Positions 13,501 to 28,209 of a stretch of DNA of 64,000 nt are shown here, one piece after another; position 1 is the stretch's first letter; every line of letters begins with the position of its first letter. The notes under the pieces were generated by a model that had not been told where the DNA came from, searched no databases, and was given only the letters and a program-made list of their open reading frames with translations. Source of the DNA: Thermoplasmatales archaeon (GTDB lineage Archaea; Thermoplasmatota; Thermoplasmata; Thermoplasmatales; Thermoplasmataceae); the NCBI GenBank assembly GCA_027310185.1, contig DAIDBH010000006.1:1-64000 (forward strand), written 5' to 3'. Made by a program: the position numbers and the translations under genes.

Positions 13501-13627
13501 GGTTTTCCACTACATTGCCATTTTCTCCTCGTCTCAAATTGCCAATATATTCATATCCCATTTGCTCGACGAATAACTTTAACACACGTTCTTGAGTTAC
13601 TTTTTCTTTCTGTCCAACATCAATCAT
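10577..13627 (-). CDS. hsdR: Type I restriction endonuclease subunit R
   Basis: PDIILYVNGIALGVLELK, WHTQGSGKS, DECHRS, GFTGTP, LLTGFDAP, QAICRVNR. Confidence 0.97.
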   Translation of the reverse strand: MIDVGQKEKVTQERVLKLFVEQMGYEYIGNLRRGENGNVVENLFRKFLRENGYSDTSINQAFFYLQKSANDNSRDLYEVNKEIYNLLRYGIKVKESKGENYQTVWPLNWEEPQKNHFYIAEEVSIRGANKKIPDIILYVNGIALGVLELKRSTVSVSEGIRQNVENQNERFIRWFFNTIQLVMAGNDTEGLRYATTETPEKYYLKWREEINIRHMLDKYLYALCRKERLLEIIHDFIAFDSGIKKICRYNQYFGIKMVQKHILENKGHNRDGIIWHTQGSGKSLIMIWLAQWIRENLENARVLIITDREELDDQIERFFKGVDENIYRTKSGRDLINQINNPSPSLMCSLIHKFMSAEEPDYEAFIKGIESGIPAGFEPKGNIYAFVDECHRSQSGDLHDAMSELLPKAVFIGFTGTPLLKSDKKRSIEVFGPYIHTYKYNEAVRDGVVLDLQYEARDIDQELTSKEKIDKWFESKTSGLTNVAKAVLKNRWGTMQKVLSSKSRLNRIVSDIMLDMETKDRLKSGTGNAILVAGSIYEACKYYELFQDEGLKKCAIVSSYDSGAKNLTGGVVSDEEETEKQYKENVYEGMLKGKTQDLFEQEVKRKFIKEPGQMKLLIVVDKLLTGFDAPPATYLYIDKSMRDHGLFQAICRVNRLDGEDKAYGYIIDYKDLFKSLDQAVQDYTSGAFDGFDKQDVNGLIKDWLKTSRGNLENSLEKIRSLCEPVKTPKDSISYIEYFCGDTENPTDLKNNEEKRVNLYRLTSKLVRSYADVANDMNRIGYSQQQAEMIKEEISRFEKVRSEIKIASGDYIDLKAYEPAMRHLIDSYIDAKESKVVSRFDNLTILDLLVEDGIPATKCLPSGIAKNREAVSQTIENNVRRIIVDMNPKNPVYYERMSKLLDDLIKERKNKSIVYENYLNQLVEISRNLKGEFGNNYPKSIDTKGKKALYDNLSNNEALAVTLDYNIRNNSYDSWRGSEIKERAVRIQIKNTLTQFGITDEKEIEKVMNLVRNQDEY

Positions 13628-14898
13628 TTCACTCTAATCCTCCCGGTAAATAGCTGTTGTAACAAGCCTATCTTTATCTTTGTAAACTTTTCTCTCTTTA
13701 ACTTGAGTAATTCAATTTCTTCATCGGCATCGGAGAGAATTTTAGCAATATCCTGCTGTTCTGAAAGAGGTGGAATTGCTACTGTTAACCTCTTGACAAT
13801 CTCTGCGTTAAGGTTATTTTGTGTAGTCGTTTGTAGATAGCGATTCAAAAACCTTTTTAGGTATTTTAGTTGGTAATAAAGGAAATTAAGATCAACGGTT
13901 TTATTATTTGGAATTATGGAAATTATAGCTTGATTTGTCGCAACTGGGAGCGTATTAATACAGACTTCTCCATAACTGGCGTACATTGAGAAAAGGATGG
14001 AATCTTTTGGCGTTAACCATGAACTACTCTTATTTAATCCCTCTTCAGTGATTCTATAGATAGTGTCATTTAAAAATTTTGAGACTTTTACCACATCTTC
14101 TATTTTAACAAATAGTACTGTCCCATTTTCATAAAAATGATTATCCGACCTTAATGGAGTGCCACCAGCTTTCATCTTTTTAACTATTGCTGGGTCACCT
14201 AAGTTATAAATTCTCCAATCGTTAGGAACGTTACCTATTTCTGCCTTTTTAAATTTTTCATTTCCTATACCTTTTGTTAAGAGTTTTTGCATCAAACCTT
14301 GCTTTATGCTCTTTTTTTTCTCTATTTTTTTTTCAAGTAAGTATATGAGACTATCCATATCAGAGAGAATTTTAGCAACTTTTAGTTGCTGAGTTTGGGG
14401 TGGGAGTGGAACTAAAATTTTTGCAAGCAACTTTGCATTGATTCCTCCTTGGGCACTTCCAGAGATATTTTGCCTTATTTGTTTCCAATAGGCATCAGAA
14501 TTTAAATACATAAAGAGAAATTCCGGATTAATTGAATCTTTTGTTCTAATTTTTATAAGGTATGATGCAAAAATTGAAGGAGGTGGGTCTTTTACTATGA
14601 ATGATTTACCTGTAGTAGCACCGGTTCTCGCGAATAATATATCTCCATTATCTAATTTATATTTTTCCTCTACCTCTTTACTACATTTACAAAAAGGTAC
14701 CGTGTCCCAATTCACAACTCCATTTTGAATGTCACTTATTCTAAGAAATTTAATTGAATTATAGTTAAAAGAAGCACTAGTTGTGAGTCCATATTGTGGT
14801 TTATGGCAAATTTGTCCAATATTGCTTAAATTCCAATCTTCTGGTATTTCGCCTATTTCTGTGTTTTTGTATTTAAAATGAAATGACCTTTCTACCAT
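13624..14898 (-). CDS. hsdS: Type I RM specificity subunit
   Basis: Two TRDs, GEIPEDW, PLPP..QQ and PPLSEQQDIAKIL conserved regions, LFTG C-terminus. Confidence 0.96.
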   Translation of the reverse strand: MVERSFHFKYKNTEIGEIPEDWNLSNIGQICHKPQYGLTTSASFNYNSIKFLRISDIQNGVVNWDTVPFCKCSKEVEEKYKLDNGDILFARTGATTGKSFIVKDPPPSIFASYLIKIRTKDSINPEFLFMYLNSDAYWKQIRQNISGSAQGGINAKLLAKILVPLPPQTQQLKVAKILSDMDSLIYLLEKKIEKKKSIKQGLMQKLLTKGIGNEKFKKAEIGNVPNDWRIYNLGDPAIVKKMKAGGTPLRSDNHFYENGTVLFVKIEDVVKVSKFLNDTIYRITEEGLNKSSSWLTPKDSILFSMYASYGEVCINTLPVATNQAIISIIPNNKTVDLNFLYYQLKYLKRFLNRYLQTTTQNNLNAEIVKRLTVAIPPLSEQQDIAKILSDADEEIELLKLKREKFTKIKIGLLQQLFTGRIRVK

Positions 14899-17297
14899 TT
14901 AAACCCCAATTCCCTAAGATGTGTCTCAACATCTTCTTCCAAAGATCTAACGGCATTGGTAATTTCTGGCAAAGGTTTTTCATATCTACTTTCTAATTCA
15001 CCAATTATTGAAGCAAATCTATAGAAGGTCTGTTCAACACTGGCAACAAAAGAGCTTATAAGTTTGTCATGCCATTTGCTATCTATTACTAAGCTTCTAG
15101 TTTCGTTATAGCTAAGAGTTCTATATTTCTCTATCAATTTTTCATTCAGAATGTCTTCTTGTATTACTTTTTCCATCTTCAATTGACTTTCCTTCTCTAT
15201 GAGAATTAAATATTGGTTTATTGCGTCAATTTCTTCCTTGTATGATGGATTGTTTTTAATTTCCATTCTTCTTTTTTTTAGTAAAGTTTTGCTAATCTTT
15301 ACTACCTCGTCAACTCTAACTTCTGAATATAGATCCTCTTCACCCATATTTTCTTCTTCCATTGCCTGCATTTCTTCCTGAACCGCTTTCAAATCTACAT
15401 CAAATTTTTCTAATCTTTCTTCACATTCTTTGAAGTATAATCTAGTGACTATTTCCTTTGGTAATAATGGACATTCCCATCCAATGACCTTTTCTTTCTG
15501 GTTTTTAAGTATCTCAATGTTACTCTTCCAACCATCTGACGAAACCAGATAGAGATCATCTTGCATTGTTTCATCCCAATAATTCATGAACTCCTGATAG
15601 ACATCATAGTTTTCTATCAATTCATATCCTTTAAATTCTTCCAGAAGTGATTCCGAAAGTTTATTACCGACTATTTTAGGGTTGTTTCCAATGTCAAATT
15701 CTTTAAGTAACTTTAGGTTTTTCTCCCACCATCTCTGGAAACTTTCTTCAACCCTATGTTTTAGAACTGCGTGTTCTTCACTTTCAAAGATGTAATCACG
15801 AATCTTTTCAGAGTTTATTTTAATATCATAATATCCCCGCCTAGAGTTTTTAATGAACAGTCTGTTCCTTAATTCTGGGAATGTTGTCCAATACTTATTA
15901 AGATTTTCTAAATCTTTTTCAGGTATTCCTCCATTCAGGTGTGCGTCAATATCCTGAATTTCTTCCTCAGGGCTACTGTCAATATACAGCGAAATATTTA
16001 AATTAAAATTATTTTTCTCAATTTCTTCATATTTGACTAATCTCGAATATTTGGGAATTTCAGTTTGTTTGTTGAAAACATCAACAATCTTATGAATGTC
16101 CCTAGCTCTCAGCCGGTTTTTGTTTCCATCCTTGGCATACCCTTCCTCTGCGGAAACCATGAATATTGATCTTTGATGAATAGCATTCTCTTTATCCATC
16201 ACAATGATACAGGCAGATATCCCAGTTCCGAAGAACAGATTTGGCGGTAACCCTATTATTCCCTTAATATACCCTCTTTCCACTATGTTCATTCTAATTG
16301 TTCCTTCAGAATTACCTCTGAATAATACACCTAAGGGCAAAATGATGGCACCTTTGCCACTGCTTTTCATTGATTTAATTAAGTGAAGAAGAAAGGCATA
16401 ATCCCCGTTCTTCTCAGGGGGGATATCTCCAAAATCTTGAAATCTTCCAAATTGATCATATTTAGGGTTTAAGCCATTTGACCAGGATTTTGTTGAGAAT
16501 GGTGGATTGGCAATAACAAAATCAAACGTTTTAAGTTTTCCCTCCTCTATCCAGTGAGGACTCGTAAGAGTGTTTCCTCTCCATATTTCAGCGGTTGGAT
16601 ACCCATGTAACCACATATTCATAGTAGCTAGTGCTTTAGTGGCGACATCATTCTCCTGACCAAAGATACTTATCCCATTTGAGGTTTCATAGGCTGCCCT
16701 CAGCAAAAGAGAACCTGACCCGCAAGTAGGGTCGTATACAGTTTGTGACATGGTTGCTTCCTTAATACCAATGACCTTTGCGATTATTTGAGATACTTCT
16801 GCAGGTGTATAAAACTGCCCCTTGCTTTTTCCAGATTCAGTAGCAAAGTTCTTCATTAGGTACTCATAGGCGTCTCCAAGAAGGTCATCACCGTCTGCCC
16901 TGTTCTTACTTAAGTTGAATTCCTGTTTCTCAAAGATGGAAACTAAATTGGAAAGTTTCTGCTGCATTTCCTTATCGTCACCTAATTTGCTCTTATCATT
17001 GAAATCTGCTTCTCTGAAGACATCCTGTAAACCATTTGCATCAGCAAATTTTGTTATTATTTTGTTAATTCTGTCTCCAATATCTGGTTTGTTTTTCAAT
17101 GCCACTATGTCTCGAAAACTGCCTCCTTCAGGAACATGAACGATTGAATCTGGTTTACTATAATATTTATCAGTGACATATCTCATAAATAAAAGCACAA
17201 GAACGTAATCCTTATACTGAGATGCATCCATACCCCCACGCAACTCATCACAACTTTTCCATAATGAACTGTAAAGTTGACTCTTCTTCACTGCCAT
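14892..17297 (-). CDS. hsdM: Type I RM methyltransferase subunit
   Basis: GQFYTP, YDPTCGSGSLL, ANPPF. Confidence 0.97.
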   Translation of the reverse strand: MAVKKSQLYSSLWKSCDELRGGMDASQYKDYVLVLLFMRYVTDKYYSKPDSIVHVPEGGSFRDIVALKNKPDIGDRINKIITKFADANGLQDVFREADFNDKSKLGDDKEMQQKLSNLVSIFEKQEFNLSKNRADGDDLLGDAYEYLMKNFATESGKSKGQFYTPAEVSQIIAKVIGIKEATMSQTVYDPTCGSGSLLLRAAYETSNGISIFGQENDVATKALATMNMWLHGYPTAEIWRGNTLTSPHWIEEGKLKTFDFVIANPPFSTKSWSNGLNPKYDQFGRFQDFGDIPPEKNGDYAFLLHLIKSMKSSGKGAIILPLGVLFRGNSEGTIRMNIVERGYIKGIIGLPPNLFFGTGISACIIVMDKENAIHQRSIFMVSAEEGYAKDGNKNRLRARDIHKIVDVFNKQTEIPKYSRLVKYEEIEKNNFNLNISLYIDSSPEEEIQDIDAHLNGGIPEKDLENLNKYWTTFPELRNRLFIKNSRRGYYDIKINSEKIRDYIFESEEHAVLKHRVEESFQRWWEKNLKLLKEFDIGNNPKIVGNKLSESLLEEFKGYELIENYDVYQEFMNYWDETMQDDLYLVSSDGWKSNIEILKNQKEKVIGWECPLLPKEIVTRLYFKECEERLEKFDVDLKAVQEEMQAMEEENMGEEDLYSEVRVDEVVKISKTLLKKRRMEIKNNPSYKEEIDAINQYLILIEKESQLKMEKVIQEDILNEKLIEKYRTLSYNETRSLVIDSKWHDKLISSFVASVEQTFYRFASIIGELESRYEKPLPEITNAVRSLEEDVETHLRELGFKW

Positions 17298-17879
17298 TTA
17301 TATTCACCCTTATAAGAAATGCAATGAAAATTTGTTATTACATATAAAATACTCATCATTGAGAATATAACACTTATCCACTAATAATTTTTTTGGAAGG
17401 TATAACTACGTTTCATTGATTCATTCTTTGTATTAAGTTAAGGGTGCTAAACGTTATCAATCCATATTATGTTATTACGCCGGCCTAAAGAATCCTTCAG
17501 ATATTATAGTAAGGCTTTTCATTCGCAATTAACTCAGATGACATGAAAAGGAAAGATTACTTTGTGAGGAGCTGAAAAGACTAAAAAAATTATATTAAAC
17601 ATCTGGGACATTTCTTATTCGATATTCACATGAGAAGGTTTTTATGAATTCCAATATTATTTTGATCAGGAATCCTATCATCCTTGATCTAAGCGATGCT
17701 CTATGCCTGTGAACTCTTTCATAAATCCAAAACAAATTCTGTTTGAAGTGCACTTTGAATTTATATCTAACTTTTAAACGAATATTATTGCATTTTATTA
17801 AATAACGATTCTATTTGAATCCTAATAAATGACACTTTCAAGTCATTCATCAAAGTTATATCTGATAAATTTATGCTGA

Positions 17880-18413
17880 ATGATGAAAACAATAAGGATA
17901 TTTCATCTCATAGAAGAGGAAATGGAATATTTTGGTGGACCAGAGAATTTTTTCTGTAAACATCTCCCTACTGAATTTAAGAGAATCATTAATATAAAAC
18001 TGCAGACCAAGGGAATGACGGATACTATGAAAAATGCGTTTAAATCAGGCAAACTTCCCCAGCCTTATTTCCCTAAGATGATTGATCCAGGTTCAAAGAT
18101 ATATTTTCATTACACAGGAAATCTGATGGCGTATGCAGAAGTTGAAGAGACTATCATTAACTACCCAAACGGAAATAGAAGGAACTTTAGGTTAAAGTCC
18201 AAGGAGCAGTATTCCACTTATCCGTTCTCTTTCAAGATTAAAGAGGGGACTTTCAGTTGCTGGAACCATGAGGAATTACCTTGGGAAAAGTGGATATGGG
18301 TAATAAATGAGAGTGGTAGAAAGCCGAAGAACAACTCATATACTAAATTAAACGATGTTGAGGATTCTAAAATTATGGATCTGATTCCAAAGCATAAATT
18401 ATGTCATTGGTGA
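17880..18413 (+). CDS. Hypothetical protein, possibly a stand-alone PUA/EVE-like domain
   Basis: PGSKIYFHYTGNLMAYAEV and YPFSFKI resemble PUA-superfamily strands. Confidence 0.55.
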   Translation: MMKTIRIFHLIEEEMEYFGGPENFFCKHLPTEFKRIINIKLQTKGMTDTMKNAFKSGKLPQPYFPKMIDPGSKIYFHYTGNLMAYAEVEETIINYPNGNRRNFRLKSKEQYSTYPFSFKIKEGTFSCWNHEELPWEKWIWVINESGRKPKNNSYTKLNDVEDSKIMDLIPKHKLCHW

Positions 18414-18577
18414 TATTGTTTCCCTACTATGAACATAAGTGATTTATCAAACTGAGTGCCCATATGTGGTATAACCATGATTGTGAAGATTAGAGAATCA
18501 CTATATCTGTATAAGTTTACAAGTGAGAAATAAATGAAAAGTGAGAAAATTTAACTTGTTTCACTTATCACCCCTTC

Positions 18578-18739
18578 ATGCCGGAAAAACTAATCGCTGT
18601 AGCTAAGACATCTTCAAAAGGGTCATCACTAAGGATCACAATACCAGGGGAAATCGCTGAGAAGTTAAACGTTTCAGAATCTGAACATATTGGATTTTAT
18701 GAAATTAATAGCGAGATTGTGATCAAGAAGATTGAATAA
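18578..18739 (+). CDS. AbrB/MazE-like small protein (53 aa, absent from the ORF track)
   Basis: MPEKLIAVAKTSSKGSSLRITIPGEIAEKLNVSESEHIGFYEINSEIVIKKIE. Confidence 0.85.
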   Translation: MPEKLIAVAKTSSKGSSLRITIPGEIAEKLNVSESEHIGFYEINSEIVIKKIE

Positions 18740-18778
18740 ATTAACTATCCAGTTGGGAGTCAATCATTCTTCCTTTGA

Positions 18779-19639
18779 CTATTTCAGAGATAGTTGAAAT
18801 TGTAGCTTAGCAGAATTATTTAAGTCGCTTGTGAAGTAAATGCACTCTAGATTATGCTCAATGGACTTATCCTTTAGAGTACGATCAGCAGTGATTAGGA
18901 TTGAATGTGTTTTTGTCGCAAAATCAAATATTTTATCATCTTCAATTTTTCCTTCCTCGTTACAATTTTCAATTGAACTACCTCCATAAGGATAAGTTTG
19001 AATTCTAATCATGCCTTGTTTAGCTAGTTTCGACAGATTCTCTCTTTCAGATAAGAAACTAGTGCGTCTTTTCCCTCTACCGAAGCATTGATCAATGAAC
19101 TTATCAAAATACTCGGGGATAATAATTTCAAAACCATTGAAATATCCAATCTGTATTAATCGTGACAGCGTTCTTGATATTAAGATATTCAAATCTGGAA
19201 GTATTCTATTTCTAGCAATTAGAATTGGTGAATTTGTCATGAGTTCATGACCGCAGCTGCATTTGAACATTGGGTTTTCAGAAGAGTCGGATACCCCTTC
19301 TATAACCTCACTTGGTTGTCCACAGTCTTGGCATATAATTAGCCCATTATTTGGTTGAAAAATTTCTTCATACTTTTTTATGTACTTTGGGTCAAGTGTC
19401 AATTGATTAAGAGCCGTCATTTTGGATATAAGATCTTTTGTTTCCTTATTTAATTGCCCTTGGATAGTAATCCTATACTTATGAATTAATATTGTAGTTC
19501 CTATTGATTCTATTTTGCATGATGTTGTTTCATTTTTATCCTCACATGTGACTTTATAACTGTTTTTAAGAAATTGAATGAACACACTTTTCTCGAAATT
19601 ATCCTTTTTGTTAAACACGATTGGCAAGCTACCAGTCAT
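18779..19639 (-). CDS. Putative RNase HIII-N/TBP-like domain + Zn ribbon + PIN-domain nuclease
   Basis: TILIHKYRITIQG, CQDC...CSCGH, and PIN motifs ILPDLN, EDDKI, LITAD. Confidence 0.75.
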   Translation of the reverse strand: MTGSLPIVFNKKDNFEKSVFIQFLKNSYKVTCEDKNETTSCKIESIGTTILIHKYRITIQGQLNKETKDLISKMTALNQLTLDPKYIKKYEEIFQPNNGLIICQDCGQPSEVIEGVSDSSENPMFKCSCGHELMTNSPILIARNRILPDLNILISRTLSRLIQIGYFNGFEIIIPEYFDKFIDQCFGRGKRRTSFLSERENLSKLAKQGMIRIQTYPYGGSSIENCNEEGKIEDDKIFDFATKTHSILITADRTLKDKSIEHNLECIYFTSDLNNSAKLQFQLSLK

Positions 19640-19677
19640 AAACTATAATTATAACAATGGTATATAAATAAGATCAA

Positions 19678-20532
19678 ATGCCAAAGTCGATGAAGTTGTC
19701 TCCTACTGAGATAAATAAATTGAGATCTTATTTAGTGGACCATAAAATAAAGACGGTCTCTGGAAATGAGTATGAATTATTCCGGGTAAAGACAAGCGAC
19801 ATTTTTATGGTTCTTTATAAAAGTGGAACTCTCGTCTTTGATGAGTCACCATCTATGTTAGAAATTCTGAACTTTGTGATGGAAGATAAAAGTGGATCAA
19901 AGTTTTACATAGGAACTGATGAAACAGGAAAAGGCGAATGGTATGGTCCACTAGTAGTAGTTGGTACATTGTTATCTTCAGAGCAAATTAAGGAATTGAG
20001 AAAGATAGGAGTAAAAGATAGTAAACTTCTTTCTGCGGATCAGATAACACTCATTTCCGAAAAGTTATTACAAATGAAGATTGAGAGATGTAGCAGAATA
20101 TTATTACCAGAAACGTATAACAGATTGTTTAAAGAATTTTCTTTAGAAGGAAAAAACGGAAATGATATGTTGGCTTGGGCTCATTCCGAAGTTGTAAAGG
20201 ATTTAATAGATAAGGCAAATACTGATAAGATTGAAGTAATTATTGATAAATTCGATTTCACGAAAATGGATTCAAGATTATCATCTAAAGAAAGAGAGAG
20301 AAAAGTTGATCAGTCTAGAATTAGAGTTATTCAAATGGAAAAGGGAGAGCGTGAAATTCCGGTAGCGACAGCAAGTATAATTGCAAAGCATATCTTTGAA
20401 GATGAAGTCAAAAAGATGTCTGAAAAATATAAAATAGATCTGAAAGCGGTAACACCTGAAAAGGTTCCAAGGGATTTATTGCCAAGTGTAGCAAAGACAA
20501 ATTTTAAGAATATCAAAAAGCTATTGATATAA
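19678..20532 (+). CDS. rnhC: Ribonuclease HIII-like protein
   Basis: N-terminal LYKSGTLVF (DUF3378/TBP-like), IGTDETGKG, GVKDSKLL, IIDKF, KGE..VATASIIAK (DEDE-type active site). Confidence 0.85.
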   Translation: MPKSMKLSPTEINKLRSYLVDHKIKTVSGNEYELFRVKTSDIFMVLYKSGTLVFDESPSMLEILNFVMEDKSGSKFYIGTDETGKGEWYGPLVVVGTLLSSEQIKELRKIGVKDSKLLSADQITLISEKLLQMKIERCSRILLPETYNRLFKEFSLEGKNGNDMLAWAHSEVVKDLIDKANTDKIEVIIDKFDFTKMDSRLSSKERERKVDQSRIRVIQMEKGEREIPVATASIIAKHIFEDEVKKMSEKYKIDLKAVTPEKVPRDLLPSVAKTNFKNIKKLLI

Positions 20533-20809
20533 AGTTGAAAAGAACGGATTTGTGTTGAATATTTCTATATATACTACGAACACAAATTACCCTTCCGCTT
20601 TCCATCCTCTCTGTTCTGTAATTGTTCATAAGACACACTTCTAATTGGTTATTTAATATATATCTATCACTATATAGCAACTTTGTCTCATTATTTAAGG
20701 GGTAGACCACTATCTATTGCAATTAACCAACCACCTTAAGGCAATTGAATCTTAGTAATTGAAATGCTTTTGTAATAATAATTGCGTTTAGGATAGAGGA
20801 TAAAGATAT

Positions 20810-21067
20810 CTAAAAATCCCGTTCATGATCATGGCACGCATCCCCAGATTGATATGGTTCTCTGTCCATTTCAAATTCAATTCCTCCCAAATGTGGGATA
20901 CCTAACCATGCCTTGACTTTGTAGCTATTTCTTTTAGTGGGCACTGGATCGCGTTTCTTTTTGCAATGAGCGTTTACATATACACCGTCACTTCTTGTAT
21001 ATGCCTTGACATACTCCTTTTCAGGCGGACAGCTTAAATTTTGATTCACCTTATCAATTATACCCAT
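20810..21067 (-). CDS. Small basic hypothetical protein
   Basis: VKAYTRSDGVYVNAH motif of a widespread small-protein type. Confidence 0.6.
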   Translation of the reverse strand: MGIIDKVNQNLSCPPEKEYVKAYTRSDGVYVNAHCKKKRDPVPTKRNSYKVKAWLGIPHLGGIEFEMDREPYQSGDACHDHERDF

Positions 21068-21150
21068 ATTTGTTATAATGGTGATTTAATACTAATTTTT
21101 TGTCTTGTTCTGATTTTTTTTCTTATATAATTTCCGGTCAATCGTTTAGA

Positions 21151-23637
21151 CTATTCATAAGGTCCTAAGAACCGGTCTCCATTGAAGTGGATCATGTGAT
21201 CTGGGGTCTCTGCCAACCAGACCTCACTTTCCCATGAAATCTCTTTTAGGTATTTTACCATCGCACTCCTATCCATGAAAGCAGTAACATAAATCAGCCC
21301 TGCACTTGACTTTCCGAAGATGTCGGATAATTCATTTCTCCTCTTCTTGTTGATAGGGCCATGACTTGTAACGGCTTCAATAAGATAGAGCCAATTCATC
21401 TCGTCATCCAAGATTATTACATCCGGAATCTTTCCGTGAACATCCAATTCTATGTTGATAGATTTAAAGCCGTTCTCATCAAAATACAGGAACTTTTTCT
21501 CTGTGTCACCTATGTAGAGTATCCTTGGTTTATTTATAAATCTTGGAATGAACAGTGAAATAATCTTCTTAACGAGTACATTTTGTCCACCAGGGGACAG
21601 TTTAATATCCATTGTGGGAGAAATGCTGACACGTATCCTCTTCTTATCCTTTATCCCCCTATAATCTTCTTCCAGAGGAGGAGCTTCTTTTAAATACTTT
21701 TTTAGTTCATCATCCCAATCTAAAGAGCTGAAGGTTCTTATTAATTGGAGAGCATTGTTTTTAATCTGATATACTGCTTTTGGGCTATTAGTGGGACGGG
21801 TCGGATCGTCTGGATTTTCATTGATTAAATGAGATTGCAGGAACTGGTGGACTGTAAATCTGCGAACGGTCTCCCTACTGTTTGGGGCATATTTTTTCCC
21901 ATAGTTTTCCTCAAAAAATTTCATCATAGGAGTAATTCCCATTAGAGGGTTAGATGAATTTTTCCACGATTCTGTTGGTTTTAGATTCAACAATGCCAGT
22001 AAGGTTAACGCAGACCTTTCATTCTGTTGTTCCCTCGGCATGCCTATTCTTTTCAATATTTCTAAAGCTTCGCCAATTTTCTTTTTTACTTCTACAGGAT
22101 CAATTTCGTTTCCATCCATTAAAAACACCGTTTTTCTAATTATATTATCGATTTCAGACTGCACAGGCAATTCGTCCGAATACATATTCCCAAGAATCAT
22201 TAATGTGTCCAAGTCGGGATACCGTAGCCTTTCCAAATCAGATGCATTTACTTGAGTGTGTCCACTCATTTGCCTAAAGTAAGAATCGACAACAGTGGAG
22301 TTGAGGTAGACCGTTAGGCCCTTAGCCAGTTCCAATTTAAGACCATTCCCATTCTGGTGGATATAATTAACTCTGTTTTCAAATCCAACCAATCCATTAT
22401 GTGTGTGTAGAGGTTTATAAACTGATGCGACGATTCTTTTTCTTTCCTCATTGCTGCTGAATCTTTTCACGATGACGTATATTTCGTCCTTTACAAGAAA
22501 ATTAATTGTTTCATCTGTTACCTTTACAAAAGGTGCTTTTCTCATTGCAGAAGGATTCCATTTGATGTATCCACTAGGATTTACACACTCGGGTTGAATA
22601 AGAGGTACCATTTCCTTAGACTCATCTCTCCCCATATCTTTTATGGTACGAAAATCTACGATTGGGCCTGTTGATGCTTTCAATCCTAAATCACTAATCT
22701 TATAGGGGAGTTTGTTTACCAGCCTCATTATTTTTTCTTCATTACTATCTACAACAATTCTTATTACGTGCTCTTTGTCGCCTGGAACAACGATCTCCTC
22801 TTGCTGAACTTCACTCTGAGTAAAGACAGTGTCTTCAGGTCCATTACTTGAAAATATCTTTACCATTCTGCTTGAAGTTTTTGACTTTACCCATTTTATT
22901 ATAATATTTTCCTGCAAAACCTTGTCTATACTGAATGCTTTATTTCTGGACATAAAAATGTGTATGGCAGAAATATCAAATTTTCCAAGAAAGTCCTCTC
23001 TAAATCTTTTAAAATAAACACCATTGCAGAAACTACGCGGAGTGATGCTGATTAATTCACCCCCATCATTTAGGTAAGTTCCTGCCATAGATAGAAATGC
23101 AGTATAAAGATTCGGACTAGCTTTACCTGCCATTTTCAATAAATGATAAGTGTCAGTTGAAGTGTTCAGTTTCTTATATGGAGGGTTTACAATTATGTGT
23201 GTGAAGTTTTCCTTAGGTCCATTGAATAGTTCATTTCTTCTTACAGAGGCCTCAATAAAGTCCTCATTTCTTATATGACCAACAAATTTAATGCCCTTTC
23301 TCTTACAAGCTTCTTCGCACGATTCAATAGCTAATTTTAGAGGTTCTAGCAGTGTGGTATCAGCTTCGAATGCTACAACCTCTATACTTTTCACATCTTT
23401 ATGTTCTAATAATACCCTATTAACACATGCTGTGAAAAGGATACCGCACCCCGCCCCTGGATCGAGAATCCGTATATTATCACTTACGAAATTGAATCCT
23501 GAAGCCATTAACTTAGCTACGGAACTCGGCGTAAAGTATTGTTTAAATCTATCTTTAACGGCATAGTGTTCTCTGTCTTTTCTTTGAAGCTGGTTATATT
23601 CTACGTAAGAAACTAAGTCGTATTCACTGGTTAACAT
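21151..23637 (-). CDS. Fused type II RM: Eco57I/PstI-like adenine methyltransferase + BsuBI/PstI-family endonuclease
   Basis: QYFTP, LDPGAGCG, NPPY, GHTQVNA, then YAPNSRETVR, HGKIPD, IEAVTSHGP, HMIHFNGDRFLGPY in one ORF. Confidence 0.92.
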   Translation of the reverse strand: MLTSEYDLVSYVEYNQLQRKDREHYAVKDRFKQYFTPSSVAKLMASGFNFVSDNIRILDPGAGCGILFTACVNRVLLEHKDVKSIEVVAFEADTTLLEPLKLAIESCEEACKRKGIKFVGHIRNEDFIEASVRRNELFNGPKENFTHIIVNPPYKKLNTSTDTYHLLKMAGKASPNLYTAFLSMAGTYLNDGGELISITPRSFCNGVYFKRFREDFLGKFDISAIHIFMSRNKAFSIDKVLQENIIIKWVKSKTSSRMVKIFSSNGPEDTVFTQSEVQQEEIVVPGDKEHVIRIVVDSNEEKIMRLVNKLPYKISDLGLKASTGPIVDFRTIKDMGRDESKEMVPLIQPECVNPSGYIKWNPSAMRKAPFVKVTDETINFLVKDEIYVIVKRFSSNEERKRIVASVYKPLHTHNGLVGFENRVNYIHQNGNGLKLELAKGLTVYLNSTVVDSYFRQMSGHTQVNASDLERLRYPDLDTLMILGNMYSDELPVQSEIDNIIRKTVFLMDGNEIDPVEVKKKIGEALEILKRIGMPREQQNERSALTLLALLNLKPTESWKNSSNPLMGITPMMKFFEENYGKKYAPNSRETVRRFTVHQFLQSHLINENPDDPTRPTNSPKAVYQIKNNALQLIRTFSSLDWDDELKKYLKEAPPLEEDYRGIKDKKRIRVSISPTMDIKLSPGGQNVLVKKIISLFIPRFINKPRILYIGDTEKKFLYFDENGFKSINIELDVHGKIPDVIILDDEMNWLYLIEAVTSHGPINKKRRNELSDIFGKSSAGLIYVTAFMDRSAMVKYLKEISWESEVWLAETPDHMIHFNGDRFLGPYE

Positions 23638-23986: not shown

Positions 23987-24100
23987 AATTCAAAATTTAT
24001 GAGCAAAGTTTCGTAAAACTTCACAGGACCTAAAATAAATTAACATTACAGGCATATTTTGCAAATCATTAATAGCGATTTACTCTTATTTATTTTCATT

Positions 24101-25306
24101 ATGGCTCAAAAGTGTATAATTATCGGTGCTGGCGCCTCTTATGGCTATGACAGCAATATGATTGATGAAGAAAAACCACCACTGGGTAAGGACGTTCTTC
24201 GACGGGCAGTCGAAATAGGTGCACTTACGGAGTGGAAATATCCAATGATAAGTTCAACACTTACCGACTATGCAAACAAATTTACGAAAGATTCCGAAAA
24301 ATTTTCTGACATAGACATTGAAGAGTATCTAGAATATCTAGCTGACCAGCTGGTAGAAATCTATACCAAAATAGATTCTAATAATCCACCACATACTAAA
24401 GAACAGTTAGATACAGTGTTATCCAAATTTCAAAACGACTTTGAGGGGACTTGGAGAAAAATTAAAAATGAAATTCAAAGCAATCCCGACCCATATTTTA
24501 ATATTAAGAATATTGCAAGTAAACTTCAGAGCGCTATTGGTGAGAGTTGGTATCTTATGTTTGAGGTTTTTAAGAAGTATTCACTAGCTTACAGACCGAA
24601 TCTTGATGCTTACCAGCGCTTGGTATTAAGCCACATCAGAGATGATTATAATGTTGTTTCTCTTAACTATGATGTTCTTTTTGAAATGGCCGCCATAGCA
24701 TCAGGCATGATTTTTCAATACCCTCCTGAAAATAGCAGTATTGTCAATAATTTCCAATTAGTTGACCCAAGGAAAATAATAAAAATCGCAAAGGTTCATG
24801 GTTCCATTAACTGGCTTAATAGTTATTCCAGAGGAATATCATTAGGCAGTGGAAAAGAAAGAGGCTACAGATTGATGCGTATTGTTAGTGGTCTTATCTA
24901 TACTAACCGAGTACAGATGGAGCCAATAGTCACAATCAATCCGCTTCAATTACAACAGATAGACATACAGGATATACTTCTATCTGGAACTAAATATTAT
25001 GAACCAGCTCTGTTACCGCCCGTTGGAAAGTATAAAGATTACCAAAAAGTAAAATATTTTGAATCTAACTGGAAGGCGGCAGAAGGATATGTCAAATCAT
25101 CAGATGAACTGGTTTTTATTGGAACAAGCATAAGAGATCAAGACACAAAACTTAAGGATATGATAGAGATGAACGTAACAAAGTCTGTAAAAATTACGAT
25201 TGTAGGTTCACAAGAGGCCGAAACTAAAATACGGAAAATATTAGGTAATAAAATCTCTGATCTGTGTTTTTATTGCAATTTTGAGGAGTATGCAAAGCAA
25301 TTATGA
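24101..25306 (+). CDS. SIR2-like (SIR2_2/AbiH-type) protein, putative NADase defence effector
   Basis: IIIGAGAS, SLNYD, KVHGS, LVFIGTS..DQD. Confidence 0.88.
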   Translation: MAQKCIIIGAGASYGYDSNMIDEEKPPLGKDVLRRAVEIGALTEWKYPMISSTLTDYANKFTKDSEKFSDIDIEEYLEYLADQLVEIYTKIDSNNPPHTKEQLDTVLSKFQNDFEGTWRKIKNEIQSNPDPYFNIKNIASKLQSAIGESWYLMFEVFKKYSLAYRPNLDAYQRLVLSHIRDDYNVVSLNYDVLFEMAAIASGMIFQYPPENSSIVNNFQLVDPRKIIKIAKVHGSINWLNSYSRGISLGSGKERGYRLMRIVSGLIYTNRVQMEPIVTINPLQLQQIDIQDILLSGTKYYEPALLPPVGKYKDYQKVKYFESNWKAAEGYVKSSDELVFIGTSIRDQDTKLKDMIEMNVTKSVKITIVGSQEAETKIRKILGNKISDLCFYCNFEEYAKQL

Positions 25307-25355: not shown

Positions 25356-26288
25356 CTATAGAATGGAGAACACATTTTCATAGTGCCATTTTAGGTAAAC
25401 ATCAGATTCATTTTTTCTGGGAAGAATGAGGTCTTCTCTTTCAACAAGTTTTTTATATTGACTAACCATGTATTCGCTGCTCAATTTTTTCATTTTCTCA
25501 TTTACAACAATTCTGTTGTTGAAAATAGAGACGAACCCCTCGTCAAAAAGTTTATGATGAATAGAGCATAGACAGAGCCCGTTGGCAAATTTCCCAGCCG
25601 ATTTCAGATCTTTATTAACTGGTATTATGTGGGCTGCTTCAAGCAAAATATCCGAATCAACATCACAAAATAAACAATGGTTATTGAAAATGGCCATAAT
25701 GTTTCTTCTGAACTCAGCTTGAAAATGCCTAGAGTTTACTACGACTTTTCTCATTGAGGGATCGACCCCATCAATCTCAATCCCGCTGTCCTCTTTCTTA
25801 AGGGAGTAAATGATTTTATTTCCTCGCCGATCTTTCATAATAGATGTAGCTTTACCATTATATTCTTCCATCATCGTATCATACATGAATTTAAACAGCT
25901 TCCATTTTGGAGTCTGTGTTTTTCCAAAATTTTCTAATCCAGGGATTTTTTGTATAATGCTCAGCGATATTTCGGGTTCAAATATTTTTATATCATTCAG
26001 TTTAAACTTATTTCTATAAGGATAATTGCCATTTTCCTTCACTGTATCAAATATATGAAGTTCAATTGTTATGCCTTTCCGATCCTTATCGTATAGCAAT
26101 AGAATTCCCTTTTTTTCATTATTTAAATAGTCACTTGGGGTGCCCCATTCATCCCATTCACCATTCTTGAACTCGTTTATATAAGAATCGCTGTAAACAC
26201 CCGATTTATCCCCAAACTGAATATACGCTATTTTCCCGATAGGATGAGCGGGTCCCTGTTTTCTAGGTTTATTCATAATATTTCTCAC
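25356..26288 (-). CDS. HNH endonuclease with an N-terminal PUA/EVE-like domain (type IV restriction-like); start may be ATG 26276
   Basis: QAEFRR..CLFC..LEAAHIIP..NGLCLC..HHKLFD. Confidence 0.85.
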   Translation of the reverse strand: MRNIMNKPRKQGPAHPIGKIAYIQFGDKSGVYSDSYINEFKNGEWDEWGTPSDYLNNEKKGILLLYDKDRKGITIELHIFDTVKENGNYPYRNKFKLNDIKIFEPEISLSIIQKIPGLENFGKTQTPKWKLFKFMYDTMMEEYNGKATSIMKDRRGNKIIYSLKKEDSGIEIDGVDPSMRKVVVNSRHFQAEFRRNIMAIFNNHCLFCDVDSDILLEAAHIIPVNKDLKSAGKFANGLCLCSIHHKLFDEGFVSIFNNRIVVNEKMKKLSSEYMVSQYKKLVEREDLILPRKNESDVYLKWHYENVFSIL

Positions 26289-26621: not shown

Positions 26622-27275
26622 ATGAAAAGCTCTAGGATTAAAATGACCTATGAAGGAAACGACATTCTTTCAATGTTTGCGTCTCCAACAAAAGACCGTG
26701 GTTTATCAATCGGTTTTACAGACCCTTCATTTGGAAATATCCATCTCACAACATTTCTCAGTCCAAAGGACAATAGGATACACTCACACATTACAGACAA
26801 ATTCCGTAAATCAAAGCCTTACAGTCAACAGATAGACCCAAGTTTGTACAAGGCAGTTATAAACAAAATAACCAAAAATTGGTACACATCAATCGATTCA
26901 CTGGGAAAGTGCTACATGCCTAAGGGATCGCTTCACGACAAACTGTCAAAACTGCTTCCACAGCGCCTGCGGGATGGTTCCTTAAGCTATCCTATTGAGA
27001 TGAATTATACATTGATTAAAACGGACTTTAACAATACTCGAAGATGGGAAGAATTAGATTCATCAGAAATCTTCAAGAAATCAGGATCGCTAATCTTCAC
27101 AATATACCATAAACGACTATGTATAGTCTCTCTATTGGAAGAAAACACAAAAAAAGTTTTGTGTTATACTGATAAACAGTACCAGCGATTCATAAATAAG
27201 ACAATGAGATTAATGGGTGTGGATATTTTTCTTGCTTACCTAGAACTAGCGGTAACTGATAAGGTAAAGCGGTAA
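26622..27275 (+). CDS. Hypothetical protein
   Basis: 217-aa ORF with no recognised motif. Confidence 0.65.
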   Translation: MKSSRIKMTYEGNDILSMFASPTKDRGLSIGFTDPSFGNIHLTTFLSPKDNRIHSHITDKFRKSKPYSQQIDPSLYKAVINKITKNWYTSIDSLGKCYMPKGSLHDKLSKLLPQRLRDGSLSYPIEMNYTLIKTDFNNTRRWEELDSSEIFKKSGSLIFTIYHKRLCIVSLLEENTKKVLCYTDKQYQRFINKTMRLMGVDIFLAYLELAVTDKVKR

Positions 27276-27346: not shown

Positions 27347-28099
27347 TTACTGTAGCCTGTTTTGCAAGGAATTGAAATCTCCTTTGATATTTTTAATATT
27401 GAGTTCACTTTTGAATTTCACTTGAGTGGATTCTGCAATTTGTAAAAGTGTATATATTAAAGCGAATAAGAAACCTGATAAATCCTTAATAGTCTTTGTC
27501 CCGACACTAGGGAACTTGAACAAATGATTGTCGCAATCTACATAAAAACCCTGTTCCTTTATTTTGCTAGAAAAGTTTCTTGAAGCTCGACCAATAGCTT
27601 CAATTCTTTCTTTTGTATCTAACATCGCTTTTGGATCGGAAAGTCTTCTATTAATCTCTGTTTCTTCGAACTTTGGCTCAAAATCTTTAAGAGATCGTAC
27701 TGCAGAATTTCTTATACTCTCATTGCTTAGTTGCGTGTCTATTTCTTGTAAAAAAGTACCCAATTTTCTTATTAATTTCGTTTTCACATCGTGGTGTATG
27801 AATAAGTCCCCTATGTCTGCAAAGCAATTGAATTCATCAGTAAATTCCTTAATTTTTTGTTTCAAATTTAAACTTTGTTTGATACCATCACTCTTATCTT
27901 TGTCTTGATATTCATTAATGATCCCGTTCTTCATTAGACAGAACATTATAAGAAAAGCCTTTGCTGCTTCTTCAAGGCCTATTTCGATTAAAGCCCCTAC
28001 AGTAGGCAAGGATAAATCCCTTTTACTGCTATCTTTTAGCAATCGAATGCTATTTTTTATGCACATTTCAAGCCCATCTGTAGTTAGCTCACAATTCAT
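27347..28099 (-). CDS. AbiV-like HEPN protein
   Basis: NSIRLLKDS, LEEAAKA, HDVK, KEQGFYVD. Confidence 0.75.
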   Translation of the reverse strand: MNCELTTDGLEMCIKNSIRLLKDSSKRDLSLPTVGALIEIGLEEAAKAFLIMFCLMKNGIINEYQDKDKSDGIKQSLNLKQKIKEFTDEFNCFADIGDLFIHHDVKTKLIRKLGTFLQEIDTQLSNESIRNSAVRSLKDFEPKFEETEINRRLSDPKAMLDTKERIEAIGRASRNFSSKIKEQGFYVDCDNHLFKFPSVGTKTIKDLSGFLFALIYTLLQIAESTQVKFKSELNIKNIKGDFNSLQNRLQ

Positions 28100-28209
28100 A
28101 TAAATGCCTCTTTGAGAGTGAGAAGTTTTAACTAATTATATTTTCCTTTTCAAGGGATAATTAAAAAAATTTACCTTATTTATCCTTTTATCATTCATAT
28201 CAGAAAGGT

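Follow-up and report, generated by a model that had tools for sequence, protein, structure and literature searches.

We identified, in a Thermoplasmatales archaeon, two divergently transcribed genes encoding an RNase HIII-type protein and a PIN nuclease (hereafter the partner) that carries its own TBP-like N-domain and a zinc ribbon. Comparison across genomes supports the pair as a conserved, co-inherited two-nuclease unit, and it is accessory in its host; its most likely role, to which we give about an even chance, is in genome conflict, i.e. defence against viruses or other invading replicons. The locus lies within a stretch of 64,000 nucleotides of contig DAIDBH010000006.1 (the window), flanked by a complete type I and a fused type II restriction-modification (R-M) system (Table 1). 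An earlier, sequence-only reading had placed two head-to-head nuclease genes inside a defence island, and both open reading frames, their 38-bp separation and the island setting were borne out.

Table 1. Features of the nuclease pair and its flanking restriction systems, in positions of the window.
Feature	Position	Strand	Description	Basis
Type I R-M system, complete	10577-17297	-	hsdR, hsdS, hsdM	Pfam and PADLOC
Partner gene	18779-19639	-	286 aa; TBP-like N-domain, CCCH zinc ribbon and PINA-like PIN nuclease	ORF
PIN nuclease domain	18782-19213	-	partner residues 143-286	structure, sequence profile and conserved columns
Zinc ribbon	19241-19342	-	partner residues 100-133; C103-x2-C106...C129-x-H131	alignment
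HIII-type TBP-like domain	19349-19639	-	partner residues 1-97; beta-alpha-beta4-alpha	predicted secondary structure
Divergent spacer	19640-19677	.	38 bp, AT-rich	sequence
RNase HIII-type gene	19678-20532	+	284 aa; TBP-like N-domain (~residues 1-70) and type-2 RNase H core	
Fused methyltransferase and BsuBI/PstI-type endonuclease	21151-23637	-	type II R-M	Pfam and PADLOC

The HIII-type protein matched the Pfam model RNase_HII (PF01351; E = 2e-24) and, under the gathering score, DUF3378 (3.6e-5). Its closest solved relatives were RNase H3 structures, with a full-length match to 4py5 (1.4e-23) and a further match to 2d0a (5.6e-17), and the sequence-based alignment to 4py5 and 3vn5 took in residues 4-70, corresponding to the TBP-like N-domain. 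Residues D81, E82, D190 and E224 match acidic residues of 2d0a and are invariant across the family alignments. Specifically, the 2d0a counterparts of D81, E82 and D190 are D97, E98 and D202, and E224 falls within two residues of E232, these four being what we take to be the acidic residues of the Bst enzyme, with a numbering that agrees with the alignment. A GKG motif is also present. The original assignment to RNase HIII, with a TBP-like N-domain and an intact D-E-D-E set, therefore holds, and the protein would be expected to cleave the RNA strand of hybrids. Against the NCBIfam rnhC model TIGR00716 it scored 138.8 bits, missing the curated equivalog cut-off of 161.2, and because it represents a divergent archaeal branch under that cut-off we refer to it as HIII-type rather than as an rnhC equivalog. 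It groups in a separate archaeal clade, apart from bacterial RNase HIII. The initial statement that HIII is mainly bacterial while archaea normally use HII needs softening, as one-genome-per-species contigs contained 184 HIII relatives of the archaeal type, the majority in housekeeping neighbourhoods.

A search of 1.84 billion entries gave 30 representatives of the partner family at E<=1e-30, and the structure of the partner was predicted with a pLDDT of 87.1, falling to 65-77 in the zinc ribbon region. Within the zinc ribbon, which had been read as CxxC...CxCxH, 27 sequences show no variation at C103, C106, C129 or H131, whereas C127 of the "CxCxH" portion is not conserved. In the PIN domain, invariance is complete at D149 and D252 and nearly so at E198 and D234, and T250-x-D252 is present. 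Structural comparison related this domain to 3i8o (Z 14.8, rmsd 2.1 over 130 aa), to PINA (5f4h; Z 12.8) and to 3ix7 (Z 11.9). The match to 3i8o was also recovered by sequence profile (6.7e-8), as was a match to NCBIfam PRK13764 (6.6e-11) covering positions 4-142 of the 613 in that profile. Although Pfam PIN models matched the partner weakly only, these comparisons confirm a PINA-like PIN domain; no HEPN match was found in Pfam.

A resemblance between the N-terminus of the partner and that of RNase HIII had also been proposed. We found that an HMM built from partner residues 1-97 retrieved, from 2,711 local sequences, 75 HIII-family proteins and no unrelated protein at E<=0.1, with 74 of the 75 matches falling within the first 100 residues. 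The predicted fold is similar to the N-domain of Aquifex RNase H3 (3vn5; Z 7.2, rmsd 2.2 over 66 aa), and the NRD of RnlA was among the best structural matches (7aex; Z 8.0, 20% identity). An hhalign comparison with the HIII N-domain was in register and weak (P 0.0014, prob 17%), Pfam detected DUF3378 weakly in 2 of 27 partner sequences (best E 0.02), and an ESM Atlas search with the partner N-domain gave top scores of 0.78-0.80, at chance level. Based on the local HMM test and the fold, the homology of the two N-domains is real at the sequence level.

Beyond the window, all 17 further loci with a partner homologue (partner identity 29-35%) possess an RNase HIII gene alongside in head-to-head orientation, consistent with the conserved pairing across genomes that had been suggested as a check. 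Among metagenome loci, 10 of 10 partner homologues (29-35% identity) adjoin a head-to-head HIII of 39-47% identity. Among named HIII loci, the partner was present in seven of the 80 best, every one divergent and adjacent, in hosts assigned to Bathyarchaeota, Borrarchaeum, Methanobacterium and Methanoregula and in one "Bacteroidota" bin; these seven were recovered through the HIII scan, and had been missed by a peptide-pattern scan with the partner alignment. No third gene was common to the 17 loci compared (window included, L048 omitted). Evolutionary distances among partners and among their HIIIs were correlated (r=0.91, 16 pairs), also outside the clade of the window (r=0.76, 12 pairs), where none of 2000 permutations gave a value as high. 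In a quick tree the paired HIIIs occurred at two places, the label requiring at least four changes, and one paired group formed a grade at the base of Methanobacterium HIIIs of housekeeping context. As to whether the RNase groups with housekeeping orthologues, paired HIIIs form no single clade apart from the housekeeping-context Methanobacteriaceae and other HIIIs. Complex prediction for HIII and partner returned "no answer" (score 0.00), which weighs neither way on binding.

Two other candidates were discarded during these surveys. A 522-aa open frame around the HIII match in L123, considered as a fusion, proved to be a spurious high-GC extension. In Altiarchaeota, HIII lies divergent to tRNA-synthetase genes (362-386 aa) that were weighed as another possible partner; these are housekeeping genes of the TrpRS/TyrRS type.

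We also identified a family of fused proteins (13 representatives, 485-525 aa) in which an RNase_HII region at approximately residues 90-310 is followed by a zinc ribbon and a PIN domain, presenting the same parts in the same order as the pair. Profile comparison by hhalign linked this family to both the partner (99.5%, E 2e-22) and the HIII-type protein (99.5%, E 1.4e-22), HIII aligning to the N-terminal 300 aa and the zinc ribbon and PIN of the partner to the C-terminal 170 aa of the fused proteins. The zinc ribbons of the two families are homologous, and the overall identity between partner and fused family is only ~16-22% (alignment A5). In one member of the fused family the N-domain matches Pfam RnlA_toxin (7e-4). 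Unlike the fused family, the window locus comprises two divergent genes, and its PIN half carries a TBP-like domain copy of its own, such that the partner resembles a fused protein minus the RNase H core. Given that the head-to-head arrangement is kept in distant archaea and that the two parts are fused elsewhere, the pair very probably works jointly.

The spacer between the genes is AT-rich as first described, whereas the TATA-like boxes reported to overlap within it do not: a pattern search located one perfect copy of TTTATATA on the minus strand (19661-19668), 22-29 nt upstream of the partner ATG, adjacent to a weaker AT-rich element upstream of the HIII ATG (~19644-19654). Both are putative promoters, judged by sequence and position. 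At 13 other paired loci the spacers measure 14-49 bp, a range that varies with start-codon calls, and Rfam gave no match in 17200-21300. Two metatranscriptome runs of a single sample yielded contigs covering both genes, which hints only weakly at expression. The contigs of either run leave 19629-19684 uncovered, a gap spanned by the DNA contig, and in both RNA runs a contig starts at 19685, in X3 preceded by adapter letters. Such a gap would fit two divergent transcripts starting near the start codons, and is discounted here as evidence because the contigs derive from a single sample.

Several observations bear on the accessory status of the module. The genome of the window encodes a separate RNase HII (151.7 bits), as do four of five other pair-bearing genomes, with one additionally possessing an unpaired HIII; the HIII of the pair is therefore an extra copy beside the housekeeping RNase HII, and PINA homologues likewise occur separately in pair-bearing genomes. 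Full-length partners were absent from the 400 sampled genomes of the phylum, and no close HIII was found in them either, the protein of the window scoring 428 bits and the next best 183, with none in the 26 genomes of the family. The first 32 kb of the window also show lower GC. Taken together, the distribution is patchy and looks transferred. Relatives of either protein were not found in viral contigs by a pattern-based scan, which does not prove their absence.

In the window, the type I R-M system ends 1.5 kb from the partner gene and the type II R-M gene lies 0.6 kb from the HIII gene, with SIR2-like, HNH, HEPN/AbiV and STAND genes near the pair and a PrimPol gene (5228-6208) in the same island. 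R-M genes occurred within 3 kb at 3 of 10 paired loci (window, L004 and L009) and at none of 28 unpaired HIII loci (those scanned of 56 at least 6.5 kb long), a contrast that is statistically weak because paired loci are scarce and some are related to one another (L004/L009, L114/L115, L044/L048); within ~8 kb, they were found at 5 of 10 paired loci. Transposases were present in L004 and L009, a TPR/cold-shock "TOTE" protein lay tail-to-tail with HIII in L114 and L115, and L114 also contained an LmuB-like ATPase. Conversely, the Borrarchaeum pair (L113) sits amid the housekeeping genes CDC48, Obg-like GTPase and phosphoglucomutase, and L010 and L006, both short contigs, show no defence-like neighbours. 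On the suggested link to defence islands, restriction genes or candidate conflict genes adjoin the pair at several loci besides the window, and the Borrarchaeum locus weakens the defence interpretation. No PADLOC-DB 2.0 family matched either protein at E<=0.1, and we found no paper describing the pair, although the supplements of PMC3597702 (archaeal HIII TBP domains), PMC3710099 and PMC5499597 might.

We favour a role for the module in genome conflict by analogy with RnlA and RNase HI. In such a scheme the TBP-like domain of HIII would grip an RNA:DNA hybrid, allowing the protein to recognise it and its type-2 RNase H core to nick the RNA strand, while the single strand or transcript flanking it would be cleaved by the PIN domain. 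Both proteins would act on one hybrid-containing substrate, for instance invader replication primers, R-loops or reverse-transcription intermediates; we infer this substrate, the cooperation, physical contact between the proteins and the defence role itself. Evidence against a defence function includes the housekeeping surroundings of the Borrarchaeum pair, the failure of paired HIIIs to form one clade and the lack of a PADLOC model for either protein, and, to the extent of the pattern-based scan, the link to mobile elements is absent from the side of viral contigs. In addition, the nearest PIN relatives are those of PINA, a DNA-repair ATPase, and this favours DNA transactions over immunity. 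A bolder form of the defence proposal, which we consider unlikely, holds that the TBP-like domains of HIII and PIN protein pair on the hybrid as a two-lobed saddle like that of TBP and thereby assemble a hetero-nuclease, an archaeal immune sensor-effector. The assembled enzyme would cut the RNA strand through HIII and the neighbouring single strand through PIN, sensing invader primers, R-loops or reverse-transcription intermediates as a type-2 RNase H counterpart of RnlA-RNase HI, and the split and fused forms would record repeated recruitment of housekeeping RNase H into immunity.

A serious rival, less probable than a general defence role though a genuine contender, is an accessory replication or repair module in which HIII strips off RNA primers or excises embedded ribonucleotides and PIN serves as a flap- or structure-specific nuclease, in the manner of RNase H2 and FEN1. 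Here the TBP-like domain would recruit the PIN protein to the same hybrid, serving replication of the host or of a mobile element. This would accord with the partner PIN having its nearest counterpart in PINA, an ATPase that processes Holliday junctions and forks, with the PrimPol in the same island, with the DnaG-type zinc finger protein that adjoins the pair in L116, with the Borrarchaeum setting, and with the tRNA synthetase, FeoB, BirA and TBP genes beside unpaired HIII relatives; the 5' nucleases FEN and T4 RNase H are also counted among PIN-like folds in PMC5499597. On the other hand, the transferred-looking distribution, with no full-length partner among the 400 genomes of the phylum, and the RNase HII already in these genomes argue against it, as do the 13 kb to the PrimPol with the type I R-M system in between, the lack of a replication gene conserved beside the pair, and recurrent neighbours that are restriction genes. 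A toxin-guard or toxin-antitoxin unit, with a toxic PIN RNase restrained by HIII via TBP-like contact (or the reverse) and freed on infection, strikes us as quite improbable. PIN domains are the commonest toxins of the VapBC type, the common N-domain could mediate hetero-dimerisation, and an AbrB/MazE-type 53-aa ORF begins 39 bp past the partner 3' end; RNase HI, moreover, both activates RnlA and recruits its antitoxin, according to the abstract of PMC5308261. However, that ORF is convergent and is not conserved at other paired loci, the divergent genes form no operon with a small upstream antitoxin, and full catalytic sites are kept family-wide in both proteins, unlike a simple antitoxin. The presence of both parts in one chain in the fused family also fits cooperation better than neutralisation. 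Finally, the two genes could be chance neighbours with no joint function, one encoding an additional housekeeping RNase H and the other a PIN protein unrelated to it, as archaeal-type HIII is widespread as a single gene and the partner is absent from 73 of the 80 best loci. This reading is very unlikely given the head-to-head HIII at every one of the 17 partner loci, at a partner identity of ~30%, the co-divergence of the two proteins, their homologous N-domains and the existence of a fusion family.

The usual view casts RNase H enzymes in housekeeping roles and treats RNase HIII as an essentially bacterial enzyme. Our results point to a widespread archaeal-type HIII, one branch of which is tied firmly to a PIN nuclease with a substrate-binding domain borrowed from HIII, in a pair that is often, though not always, found among restriction systems and that also exists in fused form. 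If the defence reading is true, the module would represent a nuclease-only system targeting RNA:DNA hybrids, and would extend to archaea and to type-2 RNase H a logic which, to our knowledge, has so far been known only for RnlA and RNase HI in E. coli and its relatives. As a simple system of two proteins, the pair also lends itself to asking if TBP-like domains are able to gather two nucleases on a single hybrid. Should its function lie in repair, an RNase H and PIN "primer-removal cassette" moving between archaeal phyla would still be new.

Comparison with known systems places the pair close to several without matching any of them. Bacterial RNase HIII (RNase H3, rnhC; 4py5, 2d0a, 3vn5) shares the TBP-like N-domain, type-2 core, DEDE residues and GKG motif, but characterised rnhC enzymes are stand-alone housekeeping genes, whereas the HIII of the window is an extra gene beside RNase HII, lies within a defence island and is tied to a PIN protein. 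PINA (PRK13764; 5f4h, 3i8o), described in PMC6061704 as a Holliday-junction- and fork-processing DNA-repair ATPase of all archaea, provides the nearest PIN domain by profile and structure; the partner, at 286 aa compared to ~600 aa, lacks its RecA-type ATPase and KH domains, ends after the PIN domain, and carries the TBP-like domain and zinc ribbon instead. VapBC-type toxin-antitoxin systems comprise a small antitoxin upstream in one operon, in contrast to a divergent pair whose neighbour is a 284-aa enzyme. A further parallel is RnlA/RnlB with RNase HI of E. coli, with which the pair has in common only the TBP-like domain and the link to RNase H. RnlA is described in the abstract of PMC5308261 as a phage-defence RNase with TBP-like domains that is stimulated by RNase HI, which it binds through its NRD. 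In PMC3710099, RNA in RNA:DNA duplexes is predicted to be the target of those HEPN RNases of the RNase LS family that are fused either with RNase H or with a TBP domain resembling that of HIII. The effector of the pair is, however, a PIN rather than a HEPN nuclease, its RNase H, a type-2 HIII, is dedicated to it and encoded by the adjacent gene, in place of a type-1 RNase HI with housekeeping duties, an RnlB-like antitoxin is not conserved beside it, and its hosts are archaea, RnlA being known from E. coli. The likeness to RnlA is one of architecture and logic, and not of family.

The plus-strand gene of the pair is predicted to encode an RNase HIII-type enzyme. It matched Pfam RNase_HII over residues 78-255 (2e-24) and, slightly below the gathering score, the HIII N-domain DUF3378 over residues 5-54 (3.6e-5); against NCBIfam models it scored 138.8 bits with rnhC (positions 1-258 of 284, the equivalog cut-off of 161.2 not being reached) and 72.8 bits with archaeal HII. 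Its top PDB sequence matches were RNase H3 structures (4py5, 1.4e-23 over residues 4-256; 2d0a, 5.6e-17; 3vn5, 2.4e-15), which outranked those of RNase HII. The sequence-only reading had regarded the D-E-D-E residues as intact, and D81, E82 and D190 indeed aligned with catalytic residues of 2d0a, with E224 lying at most 2 residues from its fourth acidic residue; all four were invariant in alignments of 17 and 24 relatives. The start codons of this gene and of its divergent partner, as read from the ORF listing and raw sequence, face each other across 19640-19677, the 38 bp originally described.

For the partner, Pfam returned weak PIN-type matches alone (Mut7-C, 0.011), and residues 144-281 matched only the PIN part of the PINA ATPase model PRK13764 of NCBIfam (6.6e-11); PADLOC gave no match for either protein of the window's pair. 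An AlphaFold2 model generated from a 27-sequence alignment (mean pLDDT 87.1) comprises an N-domain of beta-alpha-beta-beta-beta-beta-alpha topology at residues 7-76 with a further strand and helix to 94, a beta-ribbon of lower confidence at about 100-131, and an alpha/beta domain at 143-286. The last of these adopts a PIN fold, its nearest counterparts being PINs of PINA type (3i8o, Z 14.8; 5f4h, Z 12.8; 3ix7, Z 11.9), with which Foldseek and a profile match to 3i8o (6.7e-8) concur, bearing out the PINA-like PIN domain that had been proposed. Across the 27 sequences C103, C106, C129, H131, D149, E171, E233 and D252 were invariant, and E198 and D234 nearly so.

The partner's N-terminus (TILIHKYRITIQG) had also been likened to the HIII N-domain. 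In structural comparisons the modelled N-domain resembled TBP-like and helix-grip-type domains at middling Z, a range that is common in itself: the top score was for a triphosphate-tunnel protein (Z 9.2), and the matches included the NRD of RnlA (7aex, Z 8.0, 20% identity; 6y2r, Z 7.7), the N-domain of Aquifex RNase H3 (3vn5, Z 7.2, rmsd 2.2 over 66 residues), and Mediator Med18/20, KA1 and adaptin-platform domains. Profile-profile alignment placed the partner and HIII N-domains in register, weakly (P 0.0014, probability 17%), and 2 of the 27 partner members touched DUF3378 in Pfam. What decided the question was an HMM of partner residues 1-97, searched against 2,711 sequences, namely all ORFs of the compared loci and the window plus retrieved proteins, 236 of them HIII-like. 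Beyond the partner family its first 113 matches were all HIII-family proteins, and at E<=0.1 it recovered 75 HIII proteins and 0 others, 74 of the 75 being aligned inside the first 100 residues. Because only HIII proteins were picked out at this threshold outside the partner family, we judge the partner N-domain to be truly homologous to the HIII substrate-binding domain.

Members of the partner family are rare: among 5.8 billion proteins a word-based search retrieved 22 relatives (18 at 63-90% identity, 4 at 31-36%), and a HMMER scan of 1.84 billion representatives yielded 116 matches at E<=1e-3, with 30 at E<=1e-30, about 26 of them full-length (roughly 280 aa). For both window proteins, a number of close relatives come from contigs of matching length (4982, 5517, 5811, 2186, 18005 and 41413), so that the two genes probably lie on common contigs there as well. 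Metagenome contigs contributed 10 loci with a partner homologue (29-35% identity), and at all 10 an HIII homologue (39-47% identity) started 37-49 bp away on the other strand. An HIII-alignment scan of one genome per species identified 184 HIII relatives, and at 7 of the best 80 loci a partner lay directly upstream and divergent, in a Bathyarchaeota MAG, Borrarchaeum weybense, two Methanobacterium MAGs, two Methanoregula MAGs and a 'Bacteroidota' bin. Conserved pairing was observed in both surveys. The contig of the 'Bacteroidota' bin (L048) is nearly identical at the paired locus to that of one Methanobacterium MAG (L044), probably reflecting a binning error or recent transfer; the same MAG also carries an unpaired HIII in a housekeeping context (L057).

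All-against-all comparison of flanking ORFs at 17 loci, with the window included and L048 left out, found the two genes only in common, the next cluster being a generic N6-methylase at 4 loci. Pairwise distances of partner and HIII were correlated (r=0.91 over 16 pairs), also outside the window's clade (r=0.76, 12 pairs; 0/2000 label permutations as high). Divergence is faster in the partner, whose window copy shares about 30% identity with those of the other loci; for HIII the figure is about 43%.

Among the representatives we also identified proteins of 485-525 aa matching only the Zn ribbon and PIN of the partner, and 13 of 14 such long proteins scanned possessed Pfam RNase_HII at about residues 90-310. 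By hhalign, partner residues 99-269 matched the C-terminal 170 residues of this fused family (99.5%, E 2e-22), and HIII family residues 9-284 its N-terminal 300 residues (99.5%, E 1.4e-22); in a joint alignment the partner resembles the fused protein minus the RNase H core. The N-domain of one fused member matched Pfam RnlA_toxin (7e-4). Gene fusion is a classical sign of two proteins working together, and a functional link between HIII and the partner is very probable. The 14th long protein (P0184, 622 aa) is not RNase_HII; it comprises a protein-L-isoaspartate O-methyltransferase (PCMT) domain (PF01135, 8e-50, residues 193-400) followed by Zn ribbon and PIN at 447-621, and the Zn ribbon-PIN cassette is hence also joined to other N-terminal parts.

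The claim that archaea normally use RNase HII held for the window's genome (1.88 Mb, 19 contigs, 99.5% complete), which encodes a separate HII on another contig (151.7 bits), and for 4 of 5 other pair-bearing genomes, the fifth being a 1.4-Mb MAG; it is qualified by the 184 archaeal-type HIII relatives. In a sample of 400 genomes from the window's phylum, no full-length partner was found, only its PIN part being matched in PINA proteins of roughly 600 aa, and no close HIII either (next best 183 bits versus 428 for the window's own; 0/26 in the same family, 0/4 in the same genus). The left 32 kb of the window has a GC content of 30-38% and most of the right half 39-44%. Given this patchy distribution and the low GC of the left 32 kb, the pair looks to have been acquired by transfer.

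Archaeal-type HIIIs are mostly single (73 of the best 80 loci lack the partner), with tRNA synthetase, FeoB, amino-acid kinase, biotin ligase or TBP genes as neighbours. A quick maximum-likelihood tree of 95 HIIIs (short search, midpoint root) did not unite the paired HIIIs in one clade, and the paired/unpaired label required at least 4 changes: the window's clade (7 rows) fell in a starred group with Methanosphaera and Promethearchaeota enzymes, and the other 14 paired HIIIs formed a grade at the base of an unpaired Methanobacterium clade. Grouping with housekeeping orthologues, which had been held to count against a dedicated system, was therefore found in part. The tree implies repeated loss of the partner or more than one gain of it, and the co-divergence of partner and HIII favours the former, with the pair as an old unit. 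Separately, six Altiarchaeota-type MAG loci possess a full TBP gene (Pfam TBP, 1e-26 to 1e-28) directly upstream of an unpaired HIII, in the same direction and with gaps of -32 to +32 bp. A TATA-binding protein adjoining an RNase with a TBP-like N-domain may bear on the origin of that domain.

Positions of the pair, its surroundings and related features (window coordinates unless prefixed; L, compared loci in other contigs; G000:C18 and G000:C19, contigs of the window's genome)
Feature	Position	Strand	Remarks
Low-GC island	1-32000		
STAND NTPase with TPRs	224-2713		low-GC island
PrimPol and 654-aa protein without assignment	5228-8159		low-GC island
HEPN protein	8770-9687		low-GC island
Complete type I R-M system	10577-17297		flanks pair
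AbrB/MazE-type ORF	18578-18739	+	53 aa; PF04014, 2.5e-7
Partner gene	18779-19639	-	286 aa; ORF listing and raw sequence
RNase HIII-type gene	19678-20532	+	284 aa; ORF listing and raw sequence
~65-nt element	20650-20715	+	just downstream of HIII
Copies of ~65-nt element	G000:C18:12887-12944, G000:C19:22867-22936		83-90% identity
Fused methylase/BsuBI-PstI endonuclease	21151-23637		flanks pair on other side
SIR2-like gene	24059-25306		low-GC island
HNH nuclease	25356-26288		low-GC island
AbiV-like HEPN	27347-28099		low-GC island
Repeat of 62-nt piece of AbrB/MazE-type ORF	28207-28268	+	90% identity
YgjP peptidase			low-GC island
ORFs without family	3512-4669, 17880-18413, 20810-21067, 26622-27275, 28352-29014, 32145-33479		low-GC island
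TBP upstream of HIII	L066:2357-2908, L072:2445-2990, L077:2442-2996	+	Pfam TBP
TBP upstream of HIII	L079:2442-2996, L080:2442-2996, L083:1585-2136	+	Pfam TBP
TPR/DUF7017 protein	L114:7510-8811, L115:5536-6837		433 aa

The spacer holds TTTATATA, which we take to be a perfect archaeal TATA consensus, at 19661-19668 on the partner's strand, 22-29 nt ahead of its ATG; with 15 occurrences across the window the motif is at chance level overall, and is notable for its position only. Of the overlapping TATA-like boxes originally reported, that of HIII amounts to a second AT-rich stretch about 29 nt ahead of the ATG. Spacers at other paired loci measure 14-49 bp, varying with start-codon calls, and most contain a TATA-like run; these features would fit leaderless divergent transcripts. 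Two metatranscriptome runs, both of a single sample that is probably the source sample, have contigs covering both genes (in the set X3 one contig covers 17895-19628 and a second runs from 19685 to beyond 21200); as RNA libraries can contain DNA, this hints only weakly at expression. In a metagenome of a different study HIII and a portion of the partner are present, with 15 differences over 1.8 kb.

Two small elements adjoin the pair. The ~65-nt element, in which a conserved stretch follows an AT-rich TATA-like run, has two further copies in the genome, shows extra copies and higher depth in metagenome contigs, and had no Rfam match; it could represent a miniature mobile element, or else the promoter or 5' end of a small RNA. 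The AbrB/MazE-type ORF is convergent to the partner, 39 bp past its 3' end, and was not conserved at other paired loci; no ORF of at least 35 aa covers its partial repeat.

The pair had been placed inside a defence island, and in the window it does lie between a type I and a fused type II R-M system, with SIR2-like, HNH, HEPN and STAND genes nearby. The context of nine other paired loci was read by Pfam and PADLOC. L004 has two transposases besides a type IIG-like methylase and a specificity subunit, and L009 has a transposase, three methylases, a type IIG enzyme and a nicking endonuclease directly adjoining HIII. L114 (Methanoregula) carries hsdM, two hsdS, hsdR, a TPR/cold-shock 'TOTE'-type protein and an LmuB-like SMC ATPase; this TPR protein recurs in L115 (Methanoregula), together with a Csa3-like regulator. 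In L116 there are a NERD nuclease, a DnaG-zinc-finger protein and, 7 kb away, a type III restriction enzyme, and in L117 NYN and nucleotidyltransferase genes. Neighbours were plain housekeeping genes in L113 (Borrarchaeum), and nothing telling was found on the short contigs L010 and L006. The TPR/DUF7017 protein of L114 and L115 contains an S1/cold-shock domain of the 'TOTE conflict system' (PADLOC PDLC01170, 4e-21) and is arranged tail-to-tail with HIII, at a distance of 9 bp in each locus; these related loci represent one observation.

The control comprised 28 unpaired HIIIs, every second of 56 long-enough loci, with the 142 ORFs that lie within 3 kb of them. PADLOC at E<=1e-10 marked 5 loci, with four ABC-transporter ATPases and one PDC-S09, and no restriction gene. 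Restriction genes within 3 kb at 3/10 paired versus 0/28 unpaired loci favour a defence reading, as support and not proof, the loci being few and partly related (L004/L009, L114/L115); the proposed defence-island enrichment is accordingly upheld in part, with L113 speaking against it. Among viral contigs no relative of the partner or of HIII was found.

The pair combines two intact nuclease active sites, and both proteins have a domain of the hybrid-binding type. For RNase H3, the TBP-like domain is described as binding RNA:DNA hybrid (Miyashita et al. 2011, cited in PMC3710099), and PIN domains are described as metal-dependent nucleases mostly of single-stranded RNA (PMC5499597). HIII and partner might thus both be drawn to the same hybrid, where HIII would cut the RNA strand and the PIN domain the adjoining single strand, of invader primers, R-loops or reverse-transcription intermediates. 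We give a defence role about an even chance. Its main rival is a primer-removal or repair cassette of RNase H and a FEN-like PIN, for which the affinity of the PIN domain to PINA and the housekeeping context in Borrarchaeum speak, and against which stands the recurrence of restriction genes beside the pair. A toxin-guard pair is less likely because both enzymes retain their active sites and are fused into one chain elsewhere.

Full-text literature searches yielded no description of an HIII-PIN pair or fusion. The text of the PIN superfamily classification (PMC5499597) does not mention TBP, DUF3378 or PINA, its RNase H mentions being T4 RNase H and references; the main sections of the TBP-domain survey of 2013 give only two archaeal HIIIs and no PIN architecture; and Kochiwa et al. 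2007 found HIII in 1/27 archaea. The domains are known; their combination, its split and fused forms, and the link to restriction islands appear undescribed. We read the pair as a candidate nuclease module of conflict systems targeting RNA:DNA hybrids. RnlA is a phage-defence RNase with a TBP-like NTD and NRD whose NRD binds RNase HI, which stimulates RnlA and recruits its antitoxin (PMC5308261), and RnlA relatives carrying a fused RNase H or HIII-like TBP domain were predicted to attack RNA in RNA:DNA duplexes (PMC3710099). With its TBP-like domains and RNase H partner, RnlA is the nearest functional precedent for the pair.
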